From: a virus
Lineage: Duplodnaviria > Heunggongvirae > Uroviricota > Caudoviricetes
Strand: one strand, 5' to 3'
Length of the DNA stretch: 64,000 nt
Virus record (IMG/VR): IMGVR_UViG_3300032007_000048
Location: 1 to 64,000 of that record
The translations under genes were made by a program, and so were the position numbers. Shown piece by piece: positions 1,651-39,600 of this stretch. Below the pieces are notes generated by a model, which had not been told where the DNA came from, ran no database searches, and was given only the letters and a program-made list of their open reading frames with translations. Each line of letters opens with the position of its first letter. Position 1 is the stretch's first letter.

Positions 1651-2123
1651 TGGAAGAAGATTATGTAAGTTTTGAGATAGCCAAACTCTTGAAAGAGAAA
1701 GGATTTAAACGTTGGTGGTGTTATAAGAGTTATGGTACCGCGGTATATTATAAAGGTGTACCTTTAAGTGTTGATGAAGAATATGACCTAATATCAAAAG
1801 GTCATAAGAATGAAATTGAATACGTTGAAGGTGGGTATCTTTATGATTTCGGTAGTAACAATAATGATGATGACACGAAGGCATGGGCTGCTCCTACTCT
1901 TCAAAGGGCGATGAAATGGCTGAGGGAAATACATCATTACTATATTCAAGTAATGCTTGATTCTTGGGCTTGTGGAGGACATACAGGTTACTATGTTGTA
2001 ATTCAAAGAACTGACAATGATTTTGAAATGATGCTACAAGATGCTGTTGATGAGGTTTTTTATCAAACTTATGAGGAAGCCTGTGAAGCGGCAATTAGAT
2101 ATTGTTTAGAAAATTTGATTTGA
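1647..2123 (+). CDS. hypothetical protein, tandem paralog 1
   Basis: 158 aa. N-terminus MMEEDYVSFEIAKLLKEKGF and C-terminus YEEACEAAIRYCLENLI are shared with the next gene. Confidence 0.5.
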   Translation: MMEEDYVSFEIAKLLKEKGFKRWWCYKSYGTAVYYKGVPLSVDEEYDLISKGHKNEIEYVEGGYLYDFGSNNNDDDTKAWAAPTLQRAMKWLREIHHYYIQVMLDSWACGGHTGYYVVIQRTDNDFEMMLQDAVDEVFYQTYEEACEAAIRYCLENLI

Positions 2124-11638: not shown

Positions 11639-13231
11639 ATGAAAAATTTGTTTAAAATATCGGAAGGTAGTAATCCTAACTATCTGGCAACCATTTGCCG
11701 TATTGGTGAAACGTTCCCTATTGAGGGTGCTGACAGACTTCTCAGAACCACTGTTAACGGTGCTGACATTGTTATTGGTAACACAATGAAAACCAATGAT
11801 ATTGTGGTTTATGTACCTGTGGAAAGCGCGCTTTCTGAAAAGTTTTTGTCGGCCAACAATCTTTATGAGATTGGTGAATGGGAGAAAAATGCTAACGCTC
11901 CTGAAATTGGTATTATGATGGCGAAATACAATGACCTCAAAAACACCGGAAAAACCGATGAGGCTGACGAACTTTACAAGGAAATTAAGTCACAAGTCGG
12001 TTACTTTAACAAAAGGAACAGGGTAAGGATTATCACTCTTAGGGGTTGTGTTTCCAACGGTTTTATCGCAGGTGTTAACTCACTTGTCAACTATAATCCT
12101 GACCTTGCTGATGTTAATTGGGAGGAAATGGTTGGAACCTCATTTAATTATATTGGTGATGATGAATTTTGTAAAAAGTATATTCCACCAATTAAGACTT
12201 CTGAACAGAATACAGGACAGAAAGGTTTTAATAAGAGGATGAAGAAAATTAAGAGGTTTGATAAACTGGTCGAAGGTCAATTCACCTATCATTATGACAC
12301 ACAGCGTATTGATTCAACCAATATTAAGGGATTGCTTTCACCGGAGGATATTGTTACCATAACAGTCAAGGTCCATGGAACATCAGTAATTTTGTCCAAT
12401 ATTCTTGTTAATAAAAAACTTACTTTTTTTGAAAGAGTTAAGAAGTTTTTCGGTATGAATGTAAAAACAACTGAATATGGTAACATTTATTCAAGTAGGT
12501 CTGTAATTAAGAACAGATATATAACAGGTAAGGACAGTAATGATTTCTACGGTGTTGATATTTGGGGTTGTGTGAACAGGGATTTTTCACCTTATCTTTC
12601 AGAGGGTATGACTGTGTATGGTGAGATTGCAGGTTATCTTGAAGGGTCGGACAAGATGATACAGAAACGTCATGACTATGGTTGTGAGGTTGGACATTGG
12701 AAGTTTATGCCTTATCGTATAACTGAGACGGATGCCAATGGTAATGTTAAGGAATGGAATGTGCTTGATGTTGACAAGTGGACAAGAAACCTTGTTGCCG
12801 AACACCCTGAACTTAGTGACAAGGTTCTTAATCTTGAAGTGCTTTACCACGGTAAACTTTGTGATTTGTATCCTGACATTGTGGTTGACGACATGTGGTA
12901 CGACAATTTCCTTACAAGACTGCACAACGATGACAATTTCTATATGGAGCAAAAAGAGCCTATGTGTCATTTGTATGAAAAGGAAGCACTTGCGGCTAAG
13001 GCTGTTCTTGACAATGCCAAAAAGAAAGGCGAAAGTAAGAAAGTGATTTCAAAATTGACCAAGGACTATGAGAAATATGAGTCAATGAGGGCACCAAGAG
13101 AGGGTGTTGTCATTAGGATTGATGATGACCCTAAGTCTGAGGCTTTTAAAGTTAAAACTAATCTCCACTACGGATTAGTTGAATGTGCACAACATGATGC
13201 AGGTGAAGTTGATATTGAGGAGACAGCGTAA
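11639..13231 (+). CDS. ATP-dependent RNA ligase, Rnl5/DraRnl-like
   Basis: 530 aa. Motif I KVHGTS (the KxHG variant seen in the Deinococcus DraRnl family), motif III-like VYGEIAG, motif V-like REGVVIRID. There is an extra N-terminal domain. Confidence 0.55.
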   Translation: MKNLFKISEGSNPNYLATICRIGETFPIEGADRLLRTTVNGADIVIGNTMKTNDIVVYVPVESALSEKFLSANNLYEIGEWEKNANAPEIGIMMAKYNDLKNTGKTDEADELYKEIKSQVGYFNKRNRVRIITLRGCVSNGFIAGVNSLVNYNPDLADVNWEEMVGTSFNYIGDDEFCKKYIPPIKTSEQNTGQKGFNKRMKKIKRFDKLVEGQFTYHYDTQRIDSTNIKGLLSPEDIVTITVKVHGTSVILSNILVNKKLTFFERVKKFFGMNVKTTEYGNIYSSRSVIKNRYITGKDSNDFYGVDIWGCVNRDFSPYLSEGMTVYGEIAGYLEGSDKMIQKRHDYGCEVGHWKFMPYRITETDANGNVKEWNVLDVDKWTRNLVAEHPELSDKVLNLEVLYHGKLCDLYPDIVVDDMWYDNFLTRLHNDDNFYMEQKEPMCHLYEKEALAAKAVLDNAKKKGESKKVISKLTKDYEKYESMRAPREGVVIRIDDDPKSEAFKVKTNLHYGLVECAQHDAGEVDIEETA

Positions 13232-20436: not shown

Positions 20437-20895
20437 ATGGAAACAATACCTGAAATCGGAAAATATTATTATTTTTGGGACGATGGTAAGTCATCACCCT
20501 CAAGACATTACATTTGTAAATGTGAAAGGGTCATCACACCTGATGAGGCGAAAAACATTATGGTTAATGTTCCTTATGATGATGACCTGACAATAGAGAC
20601 AACATTGTATGACCATTGGCTTGAGTCAGAAATGCCTGAACATGATTGGCTATATGCCAAAGAGACAGATTATTTCGTTGAGTGTTCATGTCCAAAATAT
20701 GATGAGAATAACCTTTGGTTCGTGAGGACAAGGGATGGGGGATGGTTCAGCATGAATATACAAAACTGGTGGCAAGGTGGTACACTTGATGTGGATGAAA
20801 AAATACTTGACGGAATAATTGAAAATATCAAAAAATATCCTGAGTGGTATCCTAACCAAGAGGAATGGATAAAAAAATATACTTGTTTATACTAA
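20437..20895 (+). CDS. hypothetical Cys-containing protein
   Basis: 152-aa ORF with CKCE...CSCP pairs. Confidence 0.4.
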   Translation: METIPEIGKYYYFWDDGKSSPSRHYICKCERVITPDEAKNIMVNVPYDDDLTIETTLYDHWLESEMPEHDWLYAKETDYFVECSCPKYDENNLWFVRTRDGGWFSMNIQNWWQGGTLDVDEKILDGIIENIKKYPEWYPNQEEWIKKYTCLY

Positions 20896-20908
20896 ATAAG
20901 AAATATTA

Positions 20909-20924
20909 CCCATTGGTGTGTGGG
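20909..20924 (+). other. GC hairpin CCCA-N8-TGGG just after the stop of the upstream gene
   Basis: cccattggtgtgtggg. It is related in form to the hairpins at 22331..22348 and 31337..31356. Confidence 0.5.
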
Positions 20925-20960
20925 TTAATGCTCGGAAAATCAATTTGATAGAACGAGAAA

Positions 20961-21124
20961 GTTGTAATTCCATTTAATTTATGGTTGACTAACACCTAGT
21001 CTAACAAACCTAAAAAGCCTGACAGGTTGTAATTCCATTTAATTTATGGTTGACTAACATCTGCCATGAGGCATCTTGACAAGAACAGAAGTTGTAATTT
21101 TATTTACTTTTTTACATTAATAAA
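20961..21124 (+). CRISPR. CRISPR-like mini-array: three 34-nt repeats (third degenerate), two 31-nt spacers
   Basis: R1 20961..20994 and R2 21026..21059 are identical (GTTGTAATTCCATTTAATTTATGGTTGACTAACA). The spacers 20995..21025 (cctagtctaacaaacctaaaaagcctgacag) and 21060..21090 (tctgccatgaggcatcttgacaagaacagaa) are unique and equal in length. R3 from 21091 keeps GTTGTAATT and then diverges. The array lies 51 nt upstream of the TnpB-like gene on the same strand. Confidence 0.6.
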
Positions 21125-21162
21125 CTATTTATAAATAGAAAAAATAAAAATCTATTCATCTT

Positions 21163-22323
21163 ATGACAAGAGCATATAAATATAAACTTAAACCAACTGT
21201 GAAACAACAAAAATTGTTTTCACAAGCCTTTGGTAATGCTCGCTTTATCTATAATTGGGGACTTAATCGTAAAAAAGAAACCTGGGAAAAGGAACATAAA
21301 AATGTTACATATATACAACTGGCCAAAGAACTTACTTTACTTAAAAAAGACGGTGAACATGATTGGCTGAAACAATGTGCTAACGTTTGTCTACAACAAT
21401 CACTTAGAAACCTTGATAATGCCTATACCAGATTCTTTAAAGCAAAAAAAGGCTTTCCTAAATTTAAATCAAAGAAAAATAGTGTTGATTCTGTTAAATA
21501 CATTGCTGCTGTTCACTTTGATTTTGAAACCATGAGAGTATCAGTGCCATGTATAGGTAAAGTTAAATTTCTTAAAAATTGCGAATTTGATGTAAACACA
21601 GTAAAATTGGGTACTTTAACTGTTACAAAAGATAAATGTGGTGATTATTGGTGTACCATAGTAGTTGATGACAATAAACCAAACGTATCGAAAACCAAGA
21701 TATGTGAGGAAAAAACTGTTGGCATTGACTTAGGTGTTAAAGATTATGCAATTCTATCTGACGGTACAAAGTACGGAAATCCTAAGTATCTTGAAGCAAA
21801 ACAACAACAGTTAGCAAAAGCACAACAATGGCTTTCCAGAACACAAAAAAATAGTAAACGTCATGAAAAAGCAAAATTATATGTAGCAAAGTTACATAGA
21901 AAAATTGCTAACAGAAGAAATGATTTTCTTCATAAGTTAACAACCATGTTGATTAATGGTGAATATGACACATTTTGTATGGAGAATCTTAACATTACTG
22001 GTATGACACAGAATCATAATCTTGCAAAGAGTATAAATAGTGTTGCATGGAATGAATTTGTTAGACAATTGACATACAAGTGTGAATGGTGTGGAAAGAA
22101 CATTGTATTCATTGGTAGATATGAACCAAGTAGTAAGACATGTAACAAATGTGGATACATTGACAAGGAACTGAAGTTATCTGATAGAGAATGGATATGT
22201 CCAATATGTGGTGAACATCATGATAGAGATGTAAATGCAGCAATTAATATTAAGAACATGGGGTTACATCCACAGGCATTAATTGGCATTGAACAAAAAA
22301 TAGAAGAAATTAATAATAAATAA
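21163..22323 (+). CDS. TnpB-like RuvC/zinc-finger nuclease (IS605 OrfB family; candidate compact type V effector)
   Basis: 386 aa. RuvC-I VGIDLGVKDYA, RuvC-II FCMENLNITGM, zinc finger CNKCG...CPICG, RuvC-III HDRDVNAAINI. The OrfB-type N-terminus is present. No TnpA gene is nearby. Confidence 0.8.
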   Translation: MTRAYKYKLKPTVKQQKLFSQAFGNARFIYNWGLNRKKETWEKEHKNVTYIQLAKELTLLKKDGEHDWLKQCANVCLQQSLRNLDNAYTRFFKAKKGFPKFKSKKNSVDSVKYIAAVHFDFETMRVSVPCIGKVKFLKNCEFDVNTVKLGTLTVTKDKCGDYWCTIVVDDNKPNVSKTKICEEKTVGIDLGVKDYAILSDGTKYGNPKYLEAKQQQLAKAQQWLSRTQKNSKRHEKAKLYVAKLHRKIANRRNDFLHKLTTMLINGEYDTFCMENLNITGMTQNHNLAKSINSVAWNEFVRQLTYKCEWCGKNIVFIGRYEPSSKTCNKCGYIDKELKLSDREWICPICGEHHDRDVNAAINIKNMGLHPQALIGIEQKIEEINNK

Positions 22324-22446
22324 ATGGAATCCCCATCGGGAAGTGGGGCTATGAACGGAATCGAAAGTAAACGTTAAGATAGTAAATCTTGTGCAAACAA
22401 GTATATCATTCCCTAAAAAAGTATAAAGAAAAAAAAATATTAGTAT
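22324..22446 (+). ncRNA. candidate guide-scaffold RNA region (omegaRNA or tracrRNA-like) downstream of the TnpB-like gene
   Basis: A 123-nt non-coding gap begins with the GC hairpin ccccatcgggaagtgggg (22331..22348) immediately after the stop codon. Its position is analogous to TnpB right-end omegaRNA. This is inference only. Confidence 0.3.
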
Positions 22447-23160
22447 ATGGGAAAATTAAAGGTAATCGTTACCAGTGATTTACACGGAAATTTACCGGTG
22501 ATTATATCACCATTTGATTTGTTTCTTATATGTGGTGATAATTGTCCAGCACATAGTCATTACTACTCATTTCAATCAGAGTGGTTTAAAACTGATTTCG
22601 CTGATTGGATAAACACACTTCCATTTAAAAACGAATGGAGTAAAGTTGTGATGATTTGGGGTAACCATGATTACGTTGGCAAAAGACTTCATGAGGAGGA
22701 TTTGCATATATTCAACGAAAAAACAAAAAACAGGGTTGTTATATTGAACAATAACACATACGATTATGAGTATCTGACCGATAACGGTATTGAGACACTA
22801 AAAATATTTGGGACACCGTATTGTAAAATATTCGGTAATTGGGCTTTCATGGTTAATGATGAGCAACTTGGATATTATTATAACGAAATGCCTTACGATT
22901 GTGATATTGTGATTTCACATGACTCCCCATCAATAAATGGATTGGGAACCATTAACCAAGGTTGGAACAATGGTTATGACGCTGGAAATGAGGTGCTTGA
23001 TGAGTACATAAAACAACGAAAACCGAAATATTTTTTCAGCGGCCATATCCATAGTGGAAACCATAACTTTGAGGATGTCAATGGCACTATGATGGCAAAT
23101 GTCTCATATATTGATGAACATTATAAGCCAAAATATCTGCCACTTGAATTTGAAATCTAA
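22447..23160 (+). CDS. calcineurin-like metallophosphoesterase
   Basis: 237 aa. Motifs DLHGN, GDN, GNHDY and GHIHSG match the D-x-H / GD / GNH(D/E) / GH-x-H set. Confidence 0.75.
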   Translation: MGKLKVIVTSDLHGNLPVIISPFDLFLICGDNCPAHSHYYSFQSEWFKTDFADWINTLPFKNEWSKVVMIWGNHDYVGKRLHEEDLHIFNEKTKNRVVILNNNTYDYEYLTDNGIETLKIFGTPYCKIFGNWAFMVNDEQLGYYYNEMPYDCDIVISHDSPSINGLGTINQGWNNGYDAGNEVLDEYIKQRKPKYFFSGHIHSGNHNFEDVNGTMMANVSYIDEHYKPKYLPLEFEI

Positions 23161-23172
23161 AAGAAAAGAAAA

Positions 23173-23203
23173 AGAGAGATAGATACCTATCTCTCTTTTT
23201 TTG
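23173..23203. terminator. bidirectional intrinsic terminator
   Basis: gagagatag / ctatctctc stem with 4-nt loop, followed by TTTTTTT and preceded by an A-run. Confidence 0.65.
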
Positions 23204-23222
23204 TCTTTTATTGTTTGTTAAC

Positions 23223-23984
23223 CTAAACATTATCCTGTACTGTCCAACCTGTCGGAATACCACTTGTACCTGTTGTCCAAGATGCCATTGATGAGTGTTT
23301 AACAAATGTACCTGTACTTGCTACACTATTTACCCAATTATATGTACAATTACTTGCTGATATATCAGTTGCAAGACATTTAATATAGTTAAGATTTGTA
23401 CAACCTTCGAACATCTGATAATAACAATAATCTGTTAATGTTGTTGCAGGTAATTCAGGTGCTGTGGTTAGATTTGTACAACCAATGAACATTTCATAAT
23501 AACAGCCTTCTGTTAATGTAGTTGCAGGTAACGAAGGTGCTGTAGTTAAACTTTCACAACCTTGGAACATACTACCATAACAACTCTGTGTCAATGTTGT
23601 TGCAGGTAACAGTAGTTCACTTGCATCGGTTAAACCTGTACAATGAGTAAATAATCCATAAAATGTATAAGCATTTTCCAATGTGGTTAATGTACCAAAA
23701 TTAATACTATTAATCAACGACATTATATTACCTTTTACTTTGAATCCTGCCGTACTACTCATGAATCCGTTAAATGATATTTTTTTTCCCCCTGAAGGAT
23801 ATGTTGCATAATTTGCGTTATTTCCACGGAATTGTAAGGTGTCACCTGAAACAACTTGTATAAGTGTTTCACCTCTTGTGGAAGTTATGGATGTCCATGT
23901 TGAGCCATTATCTTTACTATACTCAATAGTTCTGGTAAAACCGGTGCCCAGTGTCCCCCAATAGATTATACCGTCATTAGTTAT
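23223..23984 (-). CDS. LRR (BspA/LRR_5-like) receptor-binding module B, in frame with upstream gene across a TAG codon
   Basis: The ORF track gives 23223..23762 (179 aa, starts MSSTAGF). A further 74 sense codons (23763..23984, ITNDGIIYW...FRGNNANYATY...) continue upstream in the same frame, with no ATG/GTG/TTG, back to the TAG stop of the 424-aa gene. The extension is homologous to the N-domain of paralogs. The frame was verified base by base. Confidence 0.5.
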   Translation of the reverse strand: MTNDGIIYWGTLGTGFTRTIEYSKDNGSTWTSITSTRGETLIQVVSGDTLQFRGNNANYATYPSGGKKISFNGFMSSTAGFKVKGNIMSLINSINFGTLTTLENAYTFYGLFTHCTGLTDASELLLPATTLTQSCYGSMFQGCESLTTAPSLPATTLTEGCYYEMFIGCTNLTTAPELPATTLTDYCYYQMFEGCTNLNYIKCLATDISASNCTYNWVNSVASTGTFVKHSSMASWTTGTSGIPTGWTVQDNV

Positions 23985-25259
23985 CTAAAATGTTAAAGGT
24001 TGGGATTTTTCATTTATTCTATTCCAATTAACAGGTATACCGTTAACACCTATTGTCCAATCAACACCGTCATTTGCCGCAACAAATGTACCTGATGATG
24101 CCACACTTTCTACCCAATCCAATGTACAATCAGTTGCTGATATATCAGTAGCAAGACATTTAATATAATTAAGTTCAGTACACCATCCGAACATACCTCT
24201 ATAACATTCATTTACTAATGTTGTTGCAGGTAACTCAGGTGCGGTTGTAAGACTTGTGCAACCATAGAACATCCTATAATAACAACCATCAGCTAATGTA
24301 GTCGCAGGTAACTCAGGTGCAGTGGTTAAGCCTGTACATTCCCTGAACATATAATAATAACATCTATTAGCTAATGTGGTCGCAGGTAATTCAGGTGTTG
24401 TTGTTAGACTTGTACAACCCCTGAACATCTGACTATAACAATTATTTGCTAATGTTGTTGCAGGTAATACTAACCCACTTGCGTCAGTTAAACCAGTGTC
24501 AGACGCAAACATAAAATCATAACAGTTACTTGCTAATGTTGTCGCAGGTAGTTCAGGTACTGTGGTAAGATTTGTACAATCATGGAACATACCGTTGTAA
24601 CAACCTTCACCGAGGTTCATTGCAGGTAGTTTAGGCACACCAACAAGGTTTGAACAATTTGCGAACATTTCCCTATAACATTCAACGGTCAAGTTATCTG
24701 CCGGTAAAATAAGTTTACTTGCATCAGTCAAACCCGTACAATACCTGAACAAACAAGTAAAAACCAAGGAAGCTGTCAACGAGGACATCGTGCTGAAATT
24801 ATTTGCGTCAAGCAGTGACATAACATTACCTTTAACGTTGAAAGTGCAAGTACAACCGCTAAAAAAATTAGCTTTTTCATATGTGTCACTTAATGTTGTA
24901 TATGTAACACCTTGCGGTGCTCTAAAAAGCACTGTATCGCCTGACGACACCGTGATAGAGGTACCACCAGTGCTTGAGGTGATTGTTACCCAATCCTCAT
25001 CGTTTTTTTTGTATTCTATTGTTCGTAAACTGTTATCTGATTTTGCTTTCCAATAAATATCACCATCACCTGTTATTTCAAATGTAAGCGGTGTTGAGAA
25101 TTTTCTTTCTTCCTCAGTCATATTATAATTAACCTTGGTGTTATCCTCAGTATAACTTACCCAAGGCTCAAGATAATCAAAATTTCTTTTTGTATTATAT
25201 TCGTTTTCAGTTTCAAATAAATGGATGTATTCTTTTACTTCTCCCATATAATTTAACAA
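23985..25259 (-). CDS. LRR (BspA/LRR_5-like) tail/receptor-binding protein, module A
   Basis: 424 aa. An N-terminal beta-rich domain (YLEPWVSYTEDNTKV...PLTFEITGDG), then about seven 23-aa repeats (LPATTLAxxCYxxMFxxCTxLTTAPE), then the conserved C-terminus NYIKCLATDISA. The annotated start codon is TTG; ATG 25247 is a more likely start. Confidence 0.6.
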   Translation of the reverse strand: MLNYMGEVKEYIHLFETENEYNTKRNFDYLEPWVSYTEDNTKVNYNMTEEERKFSTPLTFEITGDGDIYWKAKSDNSLRTIEYKKNDEDWVTITSSTGGTSITVSSGDTVLFRAPQGVTYTTLSDTYEKANFFSGCTCTFNVKGNVMSLLDANNFSTMSSLTASLVFTCLFRYCTGLTDASKLILPADNLTVECYREMFANCSNLVGVPKLPAMNLGEGCYNGMFHDCTNLTTVPELPATTLASNCYDFMFASDTGLTDASGLVLPATTLANNCYSQMFRGCTSLTTTPELPATTLANRCYYYMFRECTGLTTAPELPATTLADGCYYRMFYGCTSLTTAPELPATTLVNECYRGMFGWCTELNYIKCLATDISATDCTLDWVESVASSGTFVAANDGVDWTIGVNGIPVNWNRINEKSQPLTF

Positions 25260-25260
25260 T

Positions 25261-25305
25261 TTTTCCTTATTATTATAATATTAAATATTACAATAATAAG
25301 GAAAA
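25261..25305. repeat. near-perfect 21-bp-arm palindrome
   Basis: ttttccttattattataatat taa atattacaataataaggaaaa, one mismatch. It sits between the stop of 25350..25799 and the start of the LRR gene. Confidence 0.7.
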
Positions 25306-25349
25306 ATCACTACTCTCACGAAAAATATTCTTTGGTTTTTTTAAAACTT

Positions 25350-25799
25350 TTAGTCCTTCAAAAAAGTCCTCTCTATTCTTTTAGAAAGCCAGTCCACAGC
25401 TTCTTCTCTTGTCTTGTAGTTGTCGAATAATTCGTCAAGACAGTCACCAACACCATGTCTTTTTTTCGAAACCAAATCCACAATGTCATCAGCATCAAGT
25501 TCATCGAAAACATCAGACGCAAGGCCATTACTCAACACATATTCGACTACATCGTAGTCAGAATTAACCAAATCAAGCAATTCACCATCGGTATAGTTTT
25601 CTTTGATGTAATCTTCGATTTCGTCAGTATCATTCACGTTAAGATAACCGCGTTCTTTTAATGTGGTTTGTTCGTCAAACTCATAATCATCAATGATGTT
25701 GTCAGTTAACACATCTAAAAAGTCGGCTTTGTCCCATGGAGTCAAATTTTCTATTTTCTCCATTATTTCCTTAATTTCTTTTTTCTCTAAAATATCCAT
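25350..25799 (-). CDS. hypothetical acidic protein
   Basis: 149-aa ORF, D/E-rich. Confidence 0.45.
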   Translation of the reverse strand: MDILEKKEIKEIMEKIENLTPWDKADFLDVLTDNIIDDYEFDEQTTLKERGYLNVNDTDEIEDYIKENYTDGELLDLVNSDYDVVEYVLSNGLASDVFDELDADDIVDLVSKKRHGVGDCLDELFDNYKTREEAVDWLSKRIERTFLKD

Positions 25800-25805
25800 A
25801 TGCTT

Positions 25806-27023
25806 TTATTTTTTGTATGCTATTTTTCTTGCTTCCAGCAAAAGATTATTAACGAAGTCAACATTAATTTCACTTGGAAGTTTTGTTGTTTTCACGGCTT
25901 CATCAAACTTGTTTTTTAACAATGTCGCCTCAGCCATCACCTCATCGTAAGAGAACTCATGATTTCTTATGGCAAGAAGGTGTTTGACATCATCACCTGT
26001 TCTTCTGACATTAAATCCCTTACCCTCAGCAAGTTCAACACCCATTTCCATTAGTCTAATCATGTGAAGGAAGTTTTTGCTGTCATAGTTATAACCTCTA
26101 TTGTTTTCATATCTCACAGGATTTCTATGTTTTTTCCACTCTGTCCAATCCTTGTAATCTTTACAGTGTTTGGTATATGCGTCCTTATTATATACCATAT
26201 AACAAATGGGCAGTTCACCCTTAGGTATTGATGACAATCTAACCTCATTTGATTTGGTAATCTCATCCGGATAAACAATACCTGAGTAATGGAAAAACTC
26301 TTTATTGTTGATTCTGTCTATGATGGACTGTTTGTCCATACCTTCACCAATTATTCTACAAAAAGGATACTTAACACCTTCAATCTGAAAATCAGCGCAG
26401 TACCAATCAATACCCTCAAATTTAAAATAAGCAGCAAAATCATAGTACACACCATAGGTGTCTTTCATGTTGGGTATGTTAACAAGGCCACAATATCTTT
26501 GGTCAAGATGGTATTCATCAAGAAATTCCTTTATTGGTTGGCTACCTTGATTTTTAAAGGTATAACAAAAATCAAGAATATCTTTTCTTTGGAAATCCTC
26601 AGGTATGTTACATTTCTTGTTATATCCACTTGCTTTTTGCAGTTGTTGAAACGCGTATCCCAAAATAGGATTGAGGCATTGTTTAGTTAAAAAGGCTTCC
26701 TTATGATTAAGAATATGTTGCACGGCAGGATGTATATCACCTATAATGCAATCATCAGGAATAAACAATGACTCCATGGATGTGGGGTTTGATTTAAGAA
26801 GTAACTCAACCCACCTTCCCAACTCATAAAAAACGACATCAGATTTTTCATCATTGACTTGTTCAACATATTTGTCTCTTAAACCGTACAAATCGGTCTC
26901 AGGGCAAATAAAAACGCCACCAATGTCCTTGTCACTGGTTTCAGTAAATGTACCATATGCATGTGAACCTCTAATATATTCGTATGCGATTAGGTTATTT
27001 TCTCTAAGATAGTCAATTGTCAT
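25806..27023 (-). CDS. nucleotidyltransferase (pol-beta superfamily) domain protein
   Basis: 405 aa. N-terminal GSHAYGTFTETSDKDIGGVF matches the hG[GS]x9-13Dh[DE]h NTase motif. Confidence 0.55.
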   Translation of the reverse strand: MTIDYLRENNLIAYEYIRGSHAYGTFTETSDKDIGGVFICPETDLYGLRDKYVEQVNDEKSDVVFYELGRWVELLLKSNPTSMESLFIPDDCIIGDIHPAVQHILNHKEAFLTKQCLNPILGYAFQQLQKASGYNKKCNIPEDFQRKDILDFCYTFKNQGSQPIKEFLDEYHLDQRYCGLVNIPNMKDTYGVYYDFAAYFKFEGIDWYCADFQIEGVKYPFCRIIGEGMDKQSIIDRINNKEFFHYSGIVYPDEITKSNEVRLSSIPKGELPICYMVYNKDAYTKHCKDYKDWTEWKKHRNPVRYENNRGYNYDSKNFLHMIRLMEMGVELAEGKGFNVRRTGDDVKHLLAIRNHEFSYDEVMAEATLLKNKFDEAVKTTKLPSEINVDFVNNLLLEARKIAYKK

Positions 27024-27129
27024 GTTTCAAAATTTTAATTGTACTCATTTTTTTTTTACAAATAAACAAAAATATTTTCATTAATAAAAATCTTCGGAAT
27101 AAATCATTCTGTATTTAAACTGTCCATAG

Positions 27130-28383
27130 TTAATTTCTAAAAATGTATAAATTATTACCACACTCAAAAAAATCTGGCCAGTCAAAGTTCTCAATCATTT
27201 TTTCAAATGTCTCTTTACTGAAACCGTCATTTTTTCTTCTTTCAATGTTTTTTTCGATACCCTTAGCCTCAACATATAAGTAATCGGTTATAACGTTATA
27301 CTCTTTTGAGAGTGTGTTAACTATTTCTTCCCTGTATTTCTTTTTAAGGTTTATGTTATTGATAACAATATCATGGCCACATGATGCCGCATGTAACATT
27401 CTTTGGTTGAAAATTTCGGTTACCTTATCTTCCTGTTCCTTTGTGCCGACAATTTTTTGACCATCAGCGCAAAATCCCAATTCTGCTCTAATATCATCCC
27501 TTGACAGGATTTCAGTCTTCCCTTCTTGGAACCTATATAGAAACTCATCACCGTCATACAACGTTATTGTTTTATTATCATCAAACAAATCATCAATAAG
27601 GGTGTTTTTTCCTGAACCAGGCAAACCAATCATCATGAACAAATTAACACTTGGTTTTTTGATGTTAAGTTCATAATCATTAAGATTAAAAAGATACTTG
27701 TTACAAAAATATGGCTTAGTCTCTGAAAGTTTTAAAAAATCAACCAACCTAGTGAAATGGTTTAAAATTCTCATTTCATCGCACTTGATTTCAGAACTAT
27801 GTTCAGACCCCATACAGTCAGCATATTTAAGTCTATATAGTTGCAACAGATTGACTTGACAAGACAACCTTATAATCTCCTCTATATAGTTCTTATGTTT
27901 GATTATATTAAGTGGAAGCATGTGGTATTTAACTAACGCGCATACTTTTTCCCTAAAAGACAAATCCTCATCCCATAACAATCTTCTTGTTATTTTCTCA
28001 CCCTCAAATTCGTGACCATAACTGTGCCAATTACCATCCTTACCTATTTTTGTGGTTACGCCTTTACCGATGTCATGAAAAAGGGCGGCAGTCAAAAGAA
28101 CATCAGCGTCCTCAATCTCAGCGGCTAAACATCTTCCCCTCCAATTTAGTATCATGTCAATGACAACATCACAAACCTTCATAGTATGTGTCATGACATC
28201 GCCTTCACTATGCCATTTAGGATTTTGCTCACAGTTTTTCAAAACGGCAAATTCAGGAACCTGCTCTACCGCTTCCCAATTTATAGAACAATTGGTAAAA
28301 TCAATTAAATCTGATGCTTTCATTTTTTTTTCTTTAAATAACCTGACAAAAAATACCGTAGTCATAATACAAAGTATCCTCAA
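27130..28383 (-). CDS. HD-domain phosphohydrolase / P-loop kinase fusion (polynucleotide kinase-phosphatase-like)
   Basis: 417 aa. An H...HD motif (KWHSEGDVMTH ... ALFHDIGK) is in the N-terminal half, and Walker A GLPGSGKNT is in the C-terminal half. Confidence 0.55.
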   Translation of the reverse strand: MRILCIMTTVFFVRLFKEKKMKASDLIDFTNCSINWEAVEQVPEFAVLKNCEQNPKWHSEGDVMTHTMKVCDVVIDMILNWRGRCLAAEIEDADVLLTAALFHDIGKGVTTKIGKDGNWHSYGHEFEGEKITRRLLWDEDLSFREKVCALVKYHMLPLNIIKHKNYIEEIIRLSCQVNLLQLYRLKYADCMGSEHSSEIKCDEMRILNHFTRLVDFLKLSETKPYFCNKYLFNLNDYELNIKKPSVNLFMMIGLPGSGKNTLIDDLFDDNKTITLYDGDEFLYRFQEGKTEILSRDDIRAELGFCADGQKIVGTKEQEDKVTEIFNQRMLHAASCGHDIVINNINLKKKYREEIVNTLSKEYNVITDYLYVEAKGIEKNIERRKNDGFSKETFEKMIENFDWPDFFECGNNLYIFRN

Positions 28384-29727: not shown

Positions 29728-30306
29728 TTAAATTCTTTTGTACTTTTCCTTTTCAATGGCATACGCAAGCTCGTTTGCCTGTCTCACAACTGTAGCCAAT
29801 ACGCATTCAAAATATTTACCACCTTTTTCTTCATTTTCCTTGTCAAGACATCTGATAGCTTCAAATTCTTCCGCTGACAAGGTTATGCCCCTGTTCATGG
29901 CGTTAAGGATACTTCTCTCACCGAACTTCAACTTACCCTCAGTTTCGGCGAATTTGTAATTCAAACCTCTCTTGTCAATTTCCCATTGGTTGTCATTAGG
30001 CTCAAACATCTCTATTTTTGACAAATGCATAAGCAAACATACCCTTAACAATGAGATGGTGTTTATATTAAATGTCCCACTAATCATTTTCGCAATTCTT
30101 GTTGCCAACGCAGTTATCAGATTAATGTGAACAATTAACGCACCAGGATATGCGCATCCTGTGTCATCACTTAAGGCACATGACGCAATTTTCAATTGTG
30201 CTTTCAGTGTCTCAATGTCATAGAACCTGTCAAGACCTACCTCTCTTATATTATTATAAAAGGTAGTCCATTCTTTTTCAAAATCACTTGTAAGTACTGT
30301 TTTCAT
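29728..30306 (-). CDS. hypothetical protein
   Basis: 192-aa ORF. The -7 box caaatata (plus 30318..30325) lies 12 nt upstream of its ATG on the minus strand. Confidence 0.45.
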   Translation of the reverse strand: MKTVLTSDFEKEWTTFYNNIREVGLDRFYDIETLKAQLKIASCALSDDTGCAYPGALIVHINLITALATRIAKMISGTFNINTISLLRVCLLMHLSKIEMFEPNDNQWEIDKRGLNYKFAETEGKLKFGERSILNAMNRGITLSAEEFEAIRCLDKENEEKGGKYFECVLATVVRQANELAYAIEKEKYKRI

Positions 30307-30330: not shown

Positions 30331-31179
30331 CTATTTTTTTAAAGCAAAATAATCAAGAACAATTTCGTTGTTGTCATAGTATTTCACATTACCTTCGTCA
30401 TCACAATAAAAAGCTGTTCTCAAATCAACACAGTATCTTTGGTTTTTAAGGTTAATGGCAAAATTTTTCAAATATGTGTGACCAAAAACTTGCACATAAT
30501 TCAATTTGCTTTCAAAATCAGGATTGGACAACTCAAAATAGTGCTCATTTACATCAGCCCATATTAGACTACCATAACGGTCATAACCACCCCTGCTATA
30601 TGACATTTCTTTCATTAAAGCCCAAAATTGTAGGTATTCCTCATCATCTTTAAATGATAAAAAGTATTTGTTGTTAATAAAGTCACATATATTATCAGCC
30701 TTTAAATCATGGGACTTTAGCCAACCGTCAGTTATACCTGCGTGTGAGAACAAAAAATCCTTACCACCTATTTTTTTCTGAAAACAAATTTGAAACTGTT
30801 CCTGATTTTTACAGTAAAGACTGATATTTCTTCCTTGGTTCTCATAGTCATAACGGCATTCACAAACACTAAGGGGTCCAATACAACAACCATCATGATT
30901 ACCAACTAACAAATGGATTCTTTCTGGATTTTGTTTCTTTAAATCAATTATTTCCTTAAGATATTCAAAACCATTGTCCAAACACTCTTTTCTTAATTTG
31001 TTGTCCCATGTACCGGTAAATGTGTCGTAACCATCCCATTCAAATGGGTATGGTGACAGATAATCACCCAAAAACACTATATCGGACTCAGGGTGATTAG
31101 ACAGTGTGTCATATACAGGTTTTCTCCAAAAATCCCTGCAATGGACATCAGGTATTATCAATGTGTTTATTTTTCTCAT
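30331..31179 (-). CDS. calcineurin-like metallophosphoesterase
   Basis: 282 aa. DVHCRDF, FLGDY and LVGNHD motifs. Confidence 0.65.
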   Translation of the reverse strand: MRKINTLIIPDVHCRDFWRKPVYDTLSNHPESDIVFLGDYLSPYPFEWDGYDTFTGTWDNKLRKECLDNGFEYLKEIIDLKKQNPERIHLLVGNHDGCCIGPLSVCECRYDYENQGRNISLYCKNQEQFQICFQKKIGGKDFLFSHAGITDGWLKSHDLKADNICDFINNKYFLSFKDDEEYLQFWALMKEMSYSRGGYDRYGSLIWADVNEHYFELSNPDFESKLNYVQVFGHTYLKNFAINLKNQRYCVDLRTAFYCDDEGNVKYYDNNEIVLDYFALKK

Positions 31180-31659: not shown

Positions 31660-32649
31660 GTGAGGATGATGATTTTCCTTATTGTTAAAATATTTATTAT
31701 TATAATAACAAGTAAAATTACTAAATTAATTATGAGTAGATACATCCACAAATTTGACACAGTTACCGAATATACAACGGCAAGAAATAATAATTATCTT
31801 GAGCCTTGGGTATCTTATACTGAGGAAAATACCAAAGTTGATTATAATAAAGAAAAGTGGCCTTTTGGTTTACTTGAGACACCACTTACATTTGAGATAA
31901 CGGGTGGCGGTAATATTGTTTGGAATGCACGTAACACCGCATTAACTAAAACCATTGAATATAGTAAAGATAATGGTGCGACATGGACATCCATTACAAG
32001 TAATACCGGCTCATCAGTACCAAGTATATCAGTTGTGTCAGGTGACACCTTACAGTTCCGTGGAAATAACACCACATATGGCACATCATCTTATTATAAC
32101 ACATTCAGCGGTAGTACTGCACAATTCAAGGTTAAGGGTAATATAATGTCTTTGATTAACTCAACTAATTTCAGTGGACTGACCACATTCGAAAGTGATT
32201 ATACATTTTATATCTTATTTGCTGCTTGTACCGGTTTAACTGATGCAAGTAAACTACTGTTACCTGCAACTACATTAACAGAAAGTTGTTATAATGGTAT
32301 GTTCCAAGATTGTACAAGTCTAACAACAGCACCACAGTTACCTGCAACAACATTAGCAAAGATTTGTTATAGTAGTATGTTCTATGGTTGTACAAGCCTT
32401 ACCACCGCGCCTGAACTTCCTGCTACTACATTGGCAAATTATTGTTATAGTAGTATGTTCCAAGGTTGTACTAATCTTAATTATATTAAATGTCTTGCCA
32501 CAGATATATCAGCAAGTGATTATACAATGTATTGGGTACAAGGTGTCCAAACATCAACAGGTACATTTGTCACCCCATCAACTACCGATTGGTCATCAAA
32601 AACAGGTACAAGTGGTATTCCAAATGGTTGGACAAGGGTTGATGCTTAG
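31660..32649 (+). CDS. LRR (BspA/LRR_5-like) tail/receptor-binding protein
   Basis: 329 aa. N-terminal TM/signal, the N-domain (YLEPWVSYTEENTKV...PLTFEITGGG), three or four 23-aa LPATTLxxxCYxxMF repeats, and the C-terminus NYIKCLATDISAS. TAG stop. Confidence 0.6.
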   Translation: MRMMIFLIVKIFIIIITSKITKLIMSRYIHKFDTVTEYTTARNNNYLEPWVSYTEENTKVDYNKEKWPFGLLETPLTFEITGGGNIVWNARNTALTKTIEYSKDNGATWTSITSNTGSSVPSISVVSGDTLQFRGNNTTYGTSSYYNTFSGSTAQFKVKGNIMSLINSTNFSGLTTFESDYTFYILFAACTGLTDASKLLLPATTLTESCYNGMFQDCTSLTTAPQLPATTLAKICYSSMFYGCTSLTTAPELPATTLANYCYSSMFQGCTNLNYIKCLATDISASDYTMYWVQGVQTSTGTFVTPSTTDWSSKTGTSGIPNGWTRVDA

Positions 32650-36677: not shown

Positions 36678-39600
36678 ATGGCAAGAAGAAGGTTATTGTT
36701 CTCATATTTTTATTTAACATATAACAATCAGAAATATGGTGCTGAGTTCACGATATTACCGTTTAGTGAGGACGGTGATAACGCGGTTTTTTCAGTGACA
36801 TCAAGTAAACCTTGGGTATTGGTAAGTAAACCTGAGTGGGTCACATTATCAGCCAATGAGGGTGGAAAAGGTGAGACAACTGTTAATGTCTCTGTGGGTG
36901 TTAATCCTGAAACAGATATCAAAGAGGGTGACATCATCATAAGAACTATTGACGGTAGGTACAACGCAATCGCCCATGTGTCACAAAACGCCAATGTACC
37001 TTATATCCTTATTGATGGTGTTGACGGTGACAAACAGGTTGAGACCGATTTCAGAAGTGTCAGCAGCGCGTTTAACATTGTTGCTAAAGGCGGTTGGGAC
37101 ATTGTATGCACAAACTGTGAATGCGATGTTGACGAGGTGACGGAAACCGCCGTGACAACAACACCTATTATTATAACATATAACCAAAACACTGACACCG
37201 CATCAACTAAGACGCTTACAGCGGTTCTTACAAATAAAACCGACAACAGTATAGTAAGGACAATCACTATAACACAAGCACCTCAATCCTATATTGACTT
37301 AAACAGAACCGCCACCGCCAAAATACCTTACAACGGTGGAACAACAACATTTACGGTTGACACAAATATTGAAAGCACATTGACTGTTCCAAGCAATATC
37401 AGTTTGGATAAAACAAGTGTGTCATCAAGTGACACAATCACAATGACTGTTCCTGCGTTGACAACAGCACAGACAAGTGATATCACATACACCGTTACCG
37501 GTAATACAAGTGATTACAGTATTGTTGACGGTATAGCACAAGACACACTGCAAATCACACAAGAGGCTTATCCTTATTTGGATATAACAAATCTTACGGT
37601 TAACAGCGCAACAACATCAGGTAATATACCTTTTAGCAGTAACTATGGTCTTGTTATTACACTGTCTGACCCAAATCTAAGTAATGTGACAGTAAACAAC
37701 AACAATGTTTCTTTTACAATAAGTGAGGCACCTGCATGGACTGCGCAAACATATACATTAAGAGTTGCCACCACAGGTACTGTCGGTCCTGCGATAAGAA
37801 AGGACATTTCAATAACAAGAGACGCTAAAACCGCATATTTAACAGCGACAGCCAGCACAACAAATAAAAATTACGGGTCTACCTACATTCCAATCTCAAC
37901 TAATGATGATGTCACTGTTGAGATTTTGAGTGGTGGTGACTGGCTTACATTTAAAAATGTGTCTAATGGTAAAGCAAATTTCACTGTACAAGAAAATACG
38001 GGTACTGATGAAAGAGTAGCAAGGATAAGGATAACCACACAACATAACGGCTCAAATGGTGAGCCTGTTGTTGTTGAGACAACGTTAACGCAAACGGGTA
38101 AAGAGATATTATATAAAACCATTAATCTTCTTTTCGAACAAGACAGTAATGGTGATTGGTATGTGACATCAAGTTCAGATATAAGTGACACAATATCTGT
38201 TACTATAAGATATAACTCATATACCACTGTAATTACTGAAAACACAACATCATCAACGAAAGTTATGGGGGTCAATACAGCAACAGGTACTTCCATAGAA
38301 GGACTGTTGACATTTTCACCAGACAGGTATAGTGCCGCTGACTATGTTTATATCTTAACATATAATGACGCATATGTAACTTACACCGCAGTCAGGGAAG
38401 ATATCACAGTCACTTATAACTTAAAACAAGACAGTGACGGTATTTGGTATGTGCAGACATCTTCATCACCTAATGTCAGTATTCCTGTCAATTTCAAATC
38501 AGGCTCTACCACAAGTAGTAACATAAGTAGTGTGTCAAACACATATGTGAGTACCGGTTTTAAAAACAGTGTGGGTAACAACAACCCCAACATTGTCGGT
38601 GGTGTGTCATCATATCTTGACACGGCGGCAAGTAAATTGTATGTTATAACATATAACAAGGGTACAGTCACACCTTATAGTGAGACCCTTACCAATGTAG
38701 TGGCTGATAGCATAACATTACGATATAGTGACACTGATTTCCTTGCCAATGGTTCAGCGTCAACATCATCTATGTACTGTACACCAGAATTGTTTAGTGT
38801 AAATTATACGGCGACATACAGCAATAGTTTTGACAGCACCACAAGAACAGAAGCAGGTAGTACATATGGTAACAATTTAATAAATGAAATTAAATATACA
38901 CTTGCGGCCACTGGAAGAGGCGGTATTCGTGATACTTATAAGGTTTATGCCGCCAATAGAGGTACAACAACAGGTGACCCAAGAAACATTTTAACTATTA
39001 CAGGTGTGTCCTTCACTGTTTTAGGACGGACACTTAGCGGTACTGTGACACCAATCACTTTCACACAGGAAGCAAACAGAGTACAAAGAACTTATGTGGA
39101 AAGCGCAAGTACCGTTACAAGTGCGGCCACAGGCTCACCAACAACAACCTATTCCGATATTGGTTTTACTGTGTCAACAGATTCACCAGGTAATACTTTT
39201 GACGCGGCAGGAAAGGTTGTGGGTAAAACTTGGAGTTCAATTGACTTAACCGTCACTGAGACCGGTAAAACAAATGTTACACAAACTTATCAATACAATA
39301 GTACAAGTGCATTTACCCTAAGTTATACTTCAGGTGCTAAAGGTAATGACACCACAACAGATGCTTGGACTGATAGCATTACAACAGAAGGTCCGAATTA
39401 TTCCAATAGGGCGACATTTGACACCACATCAAAACCAAGTTGGCTTACTGTTTCAACCAAAGGTACTGATAAGTATAATATAACGGCTCTAAATAGAGGT
39501 ACAACAACAGGTGATGAAAGGAGCAAGGAATTAAAATTCAAAAGCACCAAAGATTCTTCTAAAACAACCGGTGTCACAATCACACAGTTACAAAACTACT

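Follow-up and report, generated by a model that had tools for sequence, protein, structure and literature searches.

An in-frame TAG codon in a two-module LRR-type gene of a jumbo phage as a probable recent nonsense allele

The split locus and its protein family

On the minus strand of the 64-kb window (the whole stretch of DNA analysed in this work, which comes from a rumen-type jumbo phage), a first open reading frame runs from TTG 25259 or ATG 25247 to a TAG at 23985-23987, coding for 424 aa from the TTG or 420 aa from the ATG. The start codon in the relatives is ATG (MGEVKE...), and the exact 420-aa protein, called from the ATG, is present in a public collection. The domain limits of this 420-aa product (coding sequence 23988..25247) were taken from the AlphaFold model of its ortholog P0001 (pLDDT 91.6), which exhibits an LRR-type solenoid fold. 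According to the model, the protein should embed a small N-terminal alpha/beta domain (approximately aa 1-52; 25247..25092), a first beta-sandwich (approximately aa 53-141; 25091..24825), and a series of 26-residue repeats, resembling the TIGR02167 repeat, with a C-cap (approximately aa 142-412; 24824..24012); an eight-residue tail (...KSQPLTF) follows the C-cap and closes the protein.

The TAG (23985..23987), whose next base is A, corresponds to the GAA codon of Glu421 in the orthologs of three related contigs (L002, L006, and L038), and the translation across the junction reads ...EKSQPLTF-TAG-ITNDGIIYW. It is followed, on the same strand, by 222 nt (23763..23984) representing 74 in-frame sense codons with no ATG, GTG, or TTG, which account for most of the beta-sandwich of the second module; the counterpart of this start-less stretch in P0001 (residues 417-508) is modelled as a beta-sandwich. 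Translation of these 74 codons is not expected unless the TAG is read through. They lead into a 179-aa ORF (23223..23762, minus strand; from ATG 23762 to TAG 23223-23225), which contributes to module 2 the last sandwich strand, four repeats, and the C-cap, and whose exact product was found on four contigs. Taken together, the 253 residues 3' of the TAG make up a complete second module (beta-sandwich, four repeats, and C-cap). The anatomy originally described from the letters of the DNA, that is, the in-frame TAG, the 74 start-less codons, and the 179-aa ORF, is confirmed by both the sequence and its translation. If the TAG were decoded, the junction peptide would be SQPLTF-X-ITNDGIIYWGTLGTGFTR, and the peptides of the module-2 beta-sandwich would include TIEYSK and DNGSTWTSITSTR. 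A strong bidirectional hairpin terminator (23167..23202), shared with the convergent metallophosphatase gene, lies 3' of module 2. Since no terminator-like site was found between the premature TAG and this hairpin, one transcript should cover both modules.

The repeat (LPATTLxxxCYxxMFxGCTSLTxAPE) resembles that of PARCEL (TIGR02167) and BspA-type LRR proteins (LRR_5, PF13306; PDB 4fdw, BACOVA_01565, and 4h09), and so do the solenoid with its LRR-type matches and the existence of thousands of metagenome homologs, many of them multi-module. In Foldseek, the highest-ranking structures comprise LRR proteins and phage "BspA family LRR surface proteins", together with 4fdw and 4h09. However, the truncated proteins of the window do not reach the curated cut-off of either TIGR02167 or PF13306: the ortholog P0001 scores 56.8 bits with TIGR02167 (cut-off 30), whereas the window proteins score 22.6, 16.3, and 21.4. 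No Pfam match was obtained for either the window proteins or P0001, while PF13306 is precomputed for many homologs. The module composed of beta-sandwich, repeats, and NYIKCLATDISA cap, as well as the N-terminal YIHLFET...EPWVSY domain, are described in neither the PARCEL nor the BspA-type family. As for the function, neither a location in the tail module nor homology to known receptor-binding proteins or tail fibres was found for the split gene; it lies among genes for RNA repair, phosphatase, and sigma factor functions, and its sole PHROG match is a family of unknown function. A literature search covering readthrough of stop codons in phages, as well as BspA-type LRR proteins in phage receptor binding, listed no title of obvious relevance. 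The BACON domains of a neighbouring gene and the lipoprotein signal peptides of some family members suggest that the host range is likely to lie within the Bacteroidota.

Two other loci of the window, both on the plus strand, harbor modules of the same family. A single-module paralog of 329 aa (31660..32649), which has an N-terminal domain, beta-sandwich, repeats, and cap, and ends with a TAG of its own, shows that proteins with one module are normal for this phage. Two homologous modules (50673..52871) are embedded in a 2035-aa protein (48939..55046) that additionally bears glycoside hydrolase family 2 domains. The 253 residues following the TAG share 65% identity with the module of the single-module paralog and approximately 46% with both modules of the 2035-aa protein. 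The idea that two modules in one polypeptide are normal in this phage is well founded, the 2035-aa protein being the case in point, and at least two modules are present in 107 of 247 family proteins. The glutamate that had been regarded as conserved at the junction deserves a more cautious wording. The first module of the split gene, the 329-aa paralog, and the orthologs all have PLTFE (with GAA as the codon in module 1 and in the orthologs), whereas LTFR stands at the equivalent point in both modules of the 2035-aa protein; among the 247 family members, the residue following PLTF is E in 45, N in 35, K in 17, and R in 8, so that glutamate is the commonest residue but not an invariant one.

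The locus in close relatives

The contigs L002 and L006 are syntenic with the window, at approximately 96-97% nucleotide identity, and in both of them a single 864-aa gene, flanked by the 149-aa gene and the metallophosphatase gene, reads ...SQPLTF-E(GAA)-ITGDGTIYW at the junction. L038 (ERZ919318) matches L002 apart from an apparent 86-nt deletion in module 1 that shifts the frame and leaves two pieces of 127 aa and 711 aa, and in L005 (ERZ932019/ERR2027927) a likewise apparent 256-nt frameshifting deletion spans the junction; both deletions lie in short or scaffolded metagenome contigs. Decay of the homologs by frameshift, which the sequence-only reading had named as a sign against its own proposal, was in part observed in these two deletions. 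Among these relatives, the stop is not conserved, the site being GAA in L002, L006, and L038 and deleted in L005. The comparison shows that the ancestral state was one two-module gene of 864 aa and not two tandem genes.

The TAG allele was seen only in contigs that are 100% identical to the window (L003, 12,540 nt, and L004, 3,133 nt), and it thus belongs to one strain. A distant blastn search of the locus against GenBank phages gave no match, nor did exact-pattern scans of viral and metagenome contigs with the junction and with the conserved 37 nt 5' of it, so that no further alleles were retrieved.

The comparison with L002 revealed a mismatch density of 1.9% on one side of the junction and 10.5% on the other; the step coincides exactly with the junction itself, where six changes are clustered within 15 nt. 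Since the GAA of the nearest relatives and the TAG differ by two substitutions, and these fall in such a cluster at a mosaic boundary, the change was not a lone G-to-T. Omega is 0.32 (dS 0.04) upstream of the TAG and 0.75 (dS 0.12) downstream of it. When the changes in module 2 are assigned to branches, the synonymous/non-synonymous counts are 4/11 in this strain versus 6/13 and 5/12 in the lineages with an intact module 2, so this strain exhibits no extra relaxation; as the three-lineage polarisation gives the same pattern where module 2 is intact, dN/dS is uninformative on readthrough. Neither further stops nor frameshifts are present in the 253 codons 3' of the TAG; this open state fits a very recent lesion, and functional readthrough would predict it just as well. 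A search for a nearer source of module 2, with the 253-aa segment as a query, gave no match above 73% identity.

Gene conversion from a visible paralog was rejected, because the 21-mer and 30-mer of the junction are absent from the paralogs in the window or in the related loci. Also rejected was the 329-aa gene adjoining RlaP in L002 as an ortholog of the 329-aa paralog of the window, the two being unrelated. Module 2 has also shortened, in register, from 12 repeats to 4.

Use of TAG and rival explanations

The window uses the standard genetic code, and TAG is an ordinary terminator in it. Of the 81 genes, 12 end in this codon, among them the paralog at 31660..32649 and the ORF of module 2; the standard code gives a coding density of 93.5%, and reading TAG as a sense codon (code 15) raises it to 93.7%, a gain that comes solely from this locus. 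No other gene with an in-frame TAG and no other stop-joined pair of ORFs with homology were found in the 64-kb window, and in further stretches of the same genome long genes, structural-type ones among them, are intact under the standard code. The base after the other 11 TAG terminators is T (nine cases) or G (two cases), and the premature TAG alone is followed by A. TAA is the usual stop in this AT-rich genome, and yet the GAA-type codon became TAG and not TAA, which would have been one step away; this, together with the following A, speaks against a recent nonsense change. No tRNA and no Rfam family was detected in the 64-kb window plus approximately 68 kb more from the same genome (L007, L011, L036, and L037), for a total of about 130 kb, i.e., approximately 36% of the ~363-kb genome. 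No unusual RNA structure emerged when 143 nt spanning the TAG and the region 3' of it were folded (z = +0.84 versus shuffles), and we know of no readthrough context rule specific to Bacteroidota.

On these grounds, neither programmed readthrough giving two isoforms nor a suppressor tRNA recoding TAG, both of which had been put forward by the sequence-only reading, found support. According to such models, a leaky TAG or an amber suppressor of phage or host would yield a major 420-aa form and a minor two-module form of approximately 674 aa, as in the case of the coat and A1 proteins of Qbeta, and we regard this as very unlikely here. In Qbeta, UGA readthrough of the coat gene yields the A1 minor capsid protein, a long form that the phage cannot do without, and conservation extends to the stop as well as to the extension. 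Our locus resembles Qbeta in that the stop precedes a long in-frame extension without a start codon of its own; moreover, module 2 is intact, in frame, and joined through a start-less beta-sandwich, no terminator separates the modules, and the TAG-A context departs from the TAG-T and TAG-G of the other 11 terminators. In contrast to Qbeta, however, the nearest relatives do not share the stop, since they carry GAA at 96-97% identity or have lost the link by frameshift; the stop is limited to one clonal sequence, it is UAG and not UGA, and neither a context nor a structural signal was found with it. In addition, the window's own protein is the only one of the 247 family proteins that ends at ...PLTF (0 of the 246 others), and a motif scan of the module junction in viral contigs gave 0 stops versus 25 sense codons, a scan whose power is low because of these few sense matches, so that the census of 247 proteins is the better guide. 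As for suppression, amber-suppressing gut Bacteroidota phages are documented (PMC9523058, PMC10607447, PMC11210395), and the tRNA scan covered about 36% of the genome. In phages using genetic code 15 (crAss-like phages, phAss-1, and others), TAG is decoded as Gln by suppressor tRNAs, and in-frame TAGs occur in many ORFs, 41 of them in phAss-1 (PMC9523058, PMC10607447, PMC11210395, PMC10879173). The likely Bacteroidota host range and the in-frame TAG in a surface-type gene recall these phages, but a single in-frame TAG in 64 kb, the ordinary use of TAG as a terminator (at the end of paralogous genes and of the long isoform itself), and the lack of any tRNA or Rfam match in ~130 kb set our phage apart from them. 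There is thus very little chance that the amber codon is a newly arisen functional leaky stop, served by a near-cognate tRNA or by a suppressor tRNA of the phage or the host. If this were nonetheless the case, a single gene would supply one strain with a mixture of surface proteins, some with one module and others with two, and the locus would be a snapshot of how Qbeta-like systems of short and long isoforms originate at domain boundaries; its bearing on the evolution of dual-isoform surface proteins depends on a demonstration of readthrough.

A different possibility, which we consider unlikely, is that the gene underwent fission and that its distal part is expressed from ATG 23762 as a 179-aa protein of repeats and cap, devoid of the N-terminal domain and the beta-sandwich. 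This ATG is specific to the strain (the codon is Ile in L001 and L002), the change from Ile to Met (FIGST to FMSST) falling in a cluster of four strain-specific amino-acid changes; an A-rich tract lies immediately 5' of it, the ORF belongs to the same transcript, and gene callers do annotate it. Its product, however, would begin in the middle of a domain, at the last sandwich strand according to the structural model, and would lack the N-terminal domain common to the stand-alone members of the family; no promoter-like site above chance was found, and 0 of the 247 family members examined exhibit such a truncated architecture. Finally, the sequence-only reading had also allowed for an assembly or base-call error, the true base being G in a sense codon. 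The change affects a single codon in metagenome-derived data, and all the TAG-bearing contigs may share one project. Nevertheless, identical TAG and flanks come from different pipelines, namely an ENA assembly (L003, ERZ27256887) and a Logan assembly made independently from run SRR9008757 (L004), which excludes an assembly error, and the 179-aa ORF is present in JGI/IMG as well; furthermore, the codon departs from the GAA of the relatives at two bases, and neighbouring codons differ too. An artefact is hence exceedingly improbable, and this suggestion was not borne out.

Interpretation of the amber allele

The split locus is most probably the outcome of a recent nonsense change in an often-broken two-module gene, which left a young remnant, and not a recoding device. 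The closest relatives carry a sense codon within an uninterrupted syntenic gene, and what appear to be independent lesions are found elsewhere, as would be expected for a nonsense allele. The initial suggestion of a very recent G-to-T nonsense mutation in a tandemly duplicated gene can be retained as far as the recent nonsense change is concerned; it has to be amended in that the ancestor was a single 864-aa gene and that two substitutions separate TAG from GAA.

The locus is the ortholog of a single gene whose protein has an N-terminal domain and then, twice over, a unit made up of a beta-sandwich, a solenoid of 26-residue repeats with an LRR-type fold, and a cap. In the sampled strain, the codon for Glu421, located in the first strand of the second beta-sandwich, has become TAG. 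Translation would then stop there, probably with efficient termination, giving a 420-aa one-module protein whose architecture is natural to this phage and which may well be functional. Module 2 would persist as a very young, uninterrupted remnant on the same transcript, either untranslated or reached by traces of spontaneous amber readthrough. Since the stop lies approximately 10 residues or less from the module boundary, the allele mimics a designed pair of short and long forms.

This scenario is similar to the nonsense and frameshift polymorphism of accessory, fast-evolving phage genes of the surface or tail-fibre type, in which a sense codon is maintained in close relatives and the lesion affects one clonal lineage, while different lesions occur in other lineages, the complete set of domains is kept, and the locus is mosaic. 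It differs from the usual pseudogenisation of phage surface genes in that the remnant is fully open for 253 codons.

If this reading is correct, the annotation of the locus should be that of a two-module gene disrupted by an amber codon, neither that of two genes nor that of evidence for an alternative code. From a more general viewpoint, it represents a repeat-protein gene that, in natural populations of a jumbo phage, has been repeatedly broken (by the nonsense change and by the 86-nt and 256-nt deletions) and remodelled (from 12 to 4 repeats, with a mosaic module 2). Such repeated breakage and remodelling suggest an accessory gene with a fast turnover, possibly a fast-evolving surface or host-interaction gene in which module 2 may be dispensable.

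The interrupted gene and its protein family

The minus-strand gene at 23223-25259 comprises an upstream ORF of 420 aa (424 aa from an upstream TTG) ending at TAG 23985-23987, a start-less stretch of 74 sense codons at 23984..23763, free of any ATG, GTG or TTG, and a downstream ORF of 179 aa that runs in the same frame from ATG 23762 to TAG 23223-23225. The minus-strand sequence of 23100..25400, the ORF table and the translation of 23223..25259 agree on this anatomy, which is the one described by the sequence-only reading. The minus-strand translation of the junction is ...NEKSQPLTF-TAG-ITNDGIIYWGTLGTGF..., and tblastn against the window revealed that the 253 residues past the TAG (module 2) represent a complete copy of the module forming most of the upstream protein (module 1). 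Module 2 shares 65% identity over its whole length with the module of the paralog at 31660..32649, ~50% with module 1 and ~46% with the two modules of a 2035-aa protein (48939..55046). The idea that the TAG replaces a conserved Glu stands for module 1, the 329-aa paralog and the orthologs, all of which read PLTFE, and does not extend to the 2035-aa protein, which reads LTFR; among 247 relatives, the residue after PLTF is E in 45, N in 35, K in 17 and R in 8. Inside the module-2 beta-sandwich lies a G5A8 homopolymer run (GGGGGAAAAAAAA, coding for SGGKK; 23779..23791, minus strand), a potential slippage-prone tract, which is kept in L001 (an IMG/VR relative) and L002 (the contig encoding the intact ortholog) and is in frame in every sequence seen.

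A Pfam search of the window's proteins of this family gave no matches. NCBIfam detects the 26-residue 'PARCEL' surface-protein repeat TIGR02167 (consensus LPATTLxxxCYxxMFxGCTSLTxAPE); its cut-off is exceeded by the intact ortholog but not reached by the shorter proteins of the window. Each module combines a beta-sandwich (PLTFxI..G.I.W ... GNIMSL) with consecutive repeats and a cap carrying the motif NYIKCLATDISA..C..WV..V...GTFVK.......GIP.GW. For the intact ortholog P0001, AlphaFold with an alignment of 46 relatives gave a model (mean pLDDT 91.6) in which two modules come after a small alpha/beta domain at the N terminus; the TAG site (residue 421) is predicted to be part of the opening strand (417-422) of the second sandwich, ~10 residues past the module-1 cap. 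The label LRR has support from the fold, since Foldseek groups the solenoid among LRR proteins, its PDB matches including 4fdw (BACOVA_01565) and 4h09, and its top viral matches being labelled 'Bacterial surface protein 26-residue repeat', 'Leucine rich repeat 5' and 'BspA family leucine-rich repeat surface protein'. Members of the family are very numerous (at least 8000 candidates per search, nearly all below the E-value limit applied), and a multi-module layout is common among them, two or more caps occurring in 107 of the 247 family proteins. Some members carry lipoprotein signal peptides, others a common phage-type N-terminal motif (YIHLFET...EPWVSY). The sole PHROG match of the gene is a family with unknown function, and its neighbours are RNA-repair, phosphatase and sigma-factor genes.

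Genomic setting

The genome around the window measures ~363 kb, as three ENA contigs from one sample (112,376, 45,139 and 209,768 bp) together match a 363,317-bp JGI contig; the phage is probably a jumbo phage. Sample names (PRJEB21624, 'STEW19') suggest the cow rumen as source. IMG/VR relatives with ~70% nucleotide identity are contigs of 94-113 kb. Paralogs of the repeat protein are numerous in this genome (329, 334, 435, 521 and 2035 aa). The largest (48939..55046, plus strand) joins its two repeat modules to glycoside hydrolase family 2 (sugar-binding, Ig-like, TIM barrel) and CHB_HEX_C/Fn3-associated domains, which would suit a putative glycan-degrading surface or tail appendage; a neighbouring 1578-aa protein (36678..41414) contains BACON domains. 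The RNA-repair-like genes, located at 25806..28383 (minus) and 11639..13231 (plus), encode a protein with HD-domain and AAA_33 kinase (polynucleotide-kinase-like, 417 aa), the RNA repair pathway nucleotidyltransferase RlaP (405 aa) and an RNA ligase (530 aa), a predicted set that likely counters host tRNA- or RNA-cleaving defences.

An IS605/TnpB-type element of ~1.5 kb (20882..22413; TnpB ORF 21163..22323, plus strand), with HTH_OrfB_IS605, OrfB_IS605 and Cas12f1-like TNB domains, sits between a 152-aa gene and the metallophosphatase gene, ~800 bp from the locus; it is missing in L001, L002 and L006 (a second contig with the intact gene), whose alignments skip from 20881 to 22414. Further TnpB-like genes occur in L002 (3733..5373, beside a resolvase) and in L036, a stretch of the window's own genome (15778..17004). 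Intein/Hint-domain signatures, with faint or weak Pfam matches, were found in L002 (21043..22005) and L036 (11494..14256), including an IMPDH-like gene whose parts flank a 375-aa ORF (weak Pfam signal). Lastly, ~5.9 kb of extra small ORFs missing from the window are present in this strain's 112-kb ENA contig (L011 11451..17488); the flanking alignment blocks share 54 nt (window 2068-2121), and this overlap points to loss or gain of DNA between direct repeats, or else to differing assemblies.

Alleles of the gene and origin of the TAG

A database search with the read-through product gave P0001 (864 aa, 91% identical) as its top match. In L002 and L006 the gene order is that of the window (HD-kinase, RlaP, a 149-aa gene, this gene and the convergent metallophosphatase), the surrounding genes are ~96-97% identical to it, and the locus is a single uninterrupted 864-aa gene with GAA at the TAG site (...CCT TTA ACT TTT GAA ATA ACG GGT GAC...). 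These two intact genes show that, ancestrally, both modules were fused in one gene with Glu at this codon. The TAG allele is carried by L003 (ENA ERZ27256887) and L004 (Logan assembly of SRR9008757), which match the window at 100% identity over 12,540 and 3,133 nt, respectively, and the exact 179-aa ORF is present on two more contigs, one being the 363,317-bp JGI contig. Since independent ENA and Logan assemblies carry the same TAG, an assembly artefact appears to be ruled out as its source, and we regard this explanation as extremely improbable; their complete identity to the window also indicates that the TAG is known from one clonal strain only.

Mismatches to L002 rise from 1.9% through module 1 to 10.5% from the junction on, with the change point at the junction itself, where six differences fall within 15 nt (ACA TTT TAG ATA ACT AAT in the window versus ACT TTT GAA ATA ACG GGT), and dS is 0.12 downstream and 0.04 upstream. 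Given this jump in mismatch density and the higher downstream dS, the junction is a mosaic (recombination) boundary, module 2 having a history different from that of module 1. GAA to TAG requires two substitutions. The TAG may have entered as part of the recombined tract or through two successive changes, and no visible paralog matched as donor of the tract. Specific to the window's strain are an in-register loss of repeats in module 2 (12 down to 4), a cluster of changes (NTFIGSTAQ to NGFMSSTAG) that creates ATG 23762, and the nearby TnpB-type insertion.

Other relatives carry different lesions. L005 (ERZ932019), 96% identical to the window through module 1, lacks 256 nt (at L005 1772) covering the junction and the second beta-sandwich, so that its gene stops 8 codons past the deletion and the rest of module 2 is out of frame. 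The gene of L038 (ERZ919318) equals that of L002 save for an 86-nt deletion in the first beta-sandwich (L038 6358), which splits it into ORFs of 127 and 711 aa. L001 starts 63 nt past the junction, and its module 2 is intact and longer. Thus, two of the five distinct alleles with a visible 5' part are intact and three bear disruptive lesions, the two deletions resting on contigs, not reads. Because each disrupted allele is disrupted differently, the pattern points to a dispensable, fast-turnover gene rather than a conserved recoding site.

Termination, readthrough or separate expression

We consider it quite probable that the recently acquired amber codon causes plain termination; the product would be a 420-aa protein with one module and a short tail (...KSQPLTF), and module 2 would be left as a fresh remnant. 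A one-module architecture occurs naturally in the window (paralog 31660..32649), and in its behaviour the locus matches ordinary nonsense polymorphisms of accessory phage genes. Functional readthrough or suppression, giving a two-module product, appears quite unlikely. Indeed, stop conservation, the defining test of programmed readthrough, gives a negative outcome here, as the site is GAA in L002 and L006. From the code-15 recoding of gut phages, in which TAG is read as Gln (PMC9523058, PMC10607447, PMC11210395), the locus departs in two of three tests. TAG is not special in this genome: coding density by greedy gene call is 93.5% under the standard code and 93.7% with TAG as sense, the gain coming entirely from this locus; 12 of the 81 genes end in TAG, among them module 2 itself and the one-module paralog 31660..32649; and distances to the next in-frame stop do not set TAG apart from TAA or TGA. 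The one other TAG-joined ORF pair (30331..31179 and 29728..30306) corresponds to two separate genes in relatives too. Neither a tRNA nor any other RNA family turned up in the window with ARAGORN and Rfam, and no tRNA occurs in four further stretches of the same genome (L007, L011, L036 and L037; ~68 kb), whose long genes are uninterrupted when read in the standard code. The suggested search for a suppressor tRNA and for other TAG-interrupted genes yielded neither a tRNA in these sequences nor a second such gene in the window; a suppressor tRNA is unlikely, the scan having covered the window and ~68 kb, ~36% of the ~363-kb genome. In the 143-nt stretch around and beyond the TAG, folding is no stronger than in shuffled sequences (z = +0.84). 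The base following the premature TAG is A, as expected of a stop not evolved as a terminator, and among the 12 TAGs it is the only A, the others being followed by T (9) or G (2); this could raise its leakiness a little.

That the distal 179-aa ORF is expressed separately is likewise improbable, though a little less so than readthrough. No terminator was found between the TAG and a strong bidirectional hairpin after module 2 (23167-23202); on these grounds, the module-2 remnant would be transcribed together with module 1. Polarised changes over 151 shared module-2 codons (synonymous/non-synonymous) number 4/11 for the window, 6/13 for L002 and 5/12 for L001, with omega ~0.7 in every lineage and no added relaxation on the window branch, which fits a very recent stop, although module 2 may still be in use.

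The observation of two modules joined across a TAG is accurate and useful for annotation; biologically, it would be of low interest unless proteomics reveals a junction-spanning peptide.
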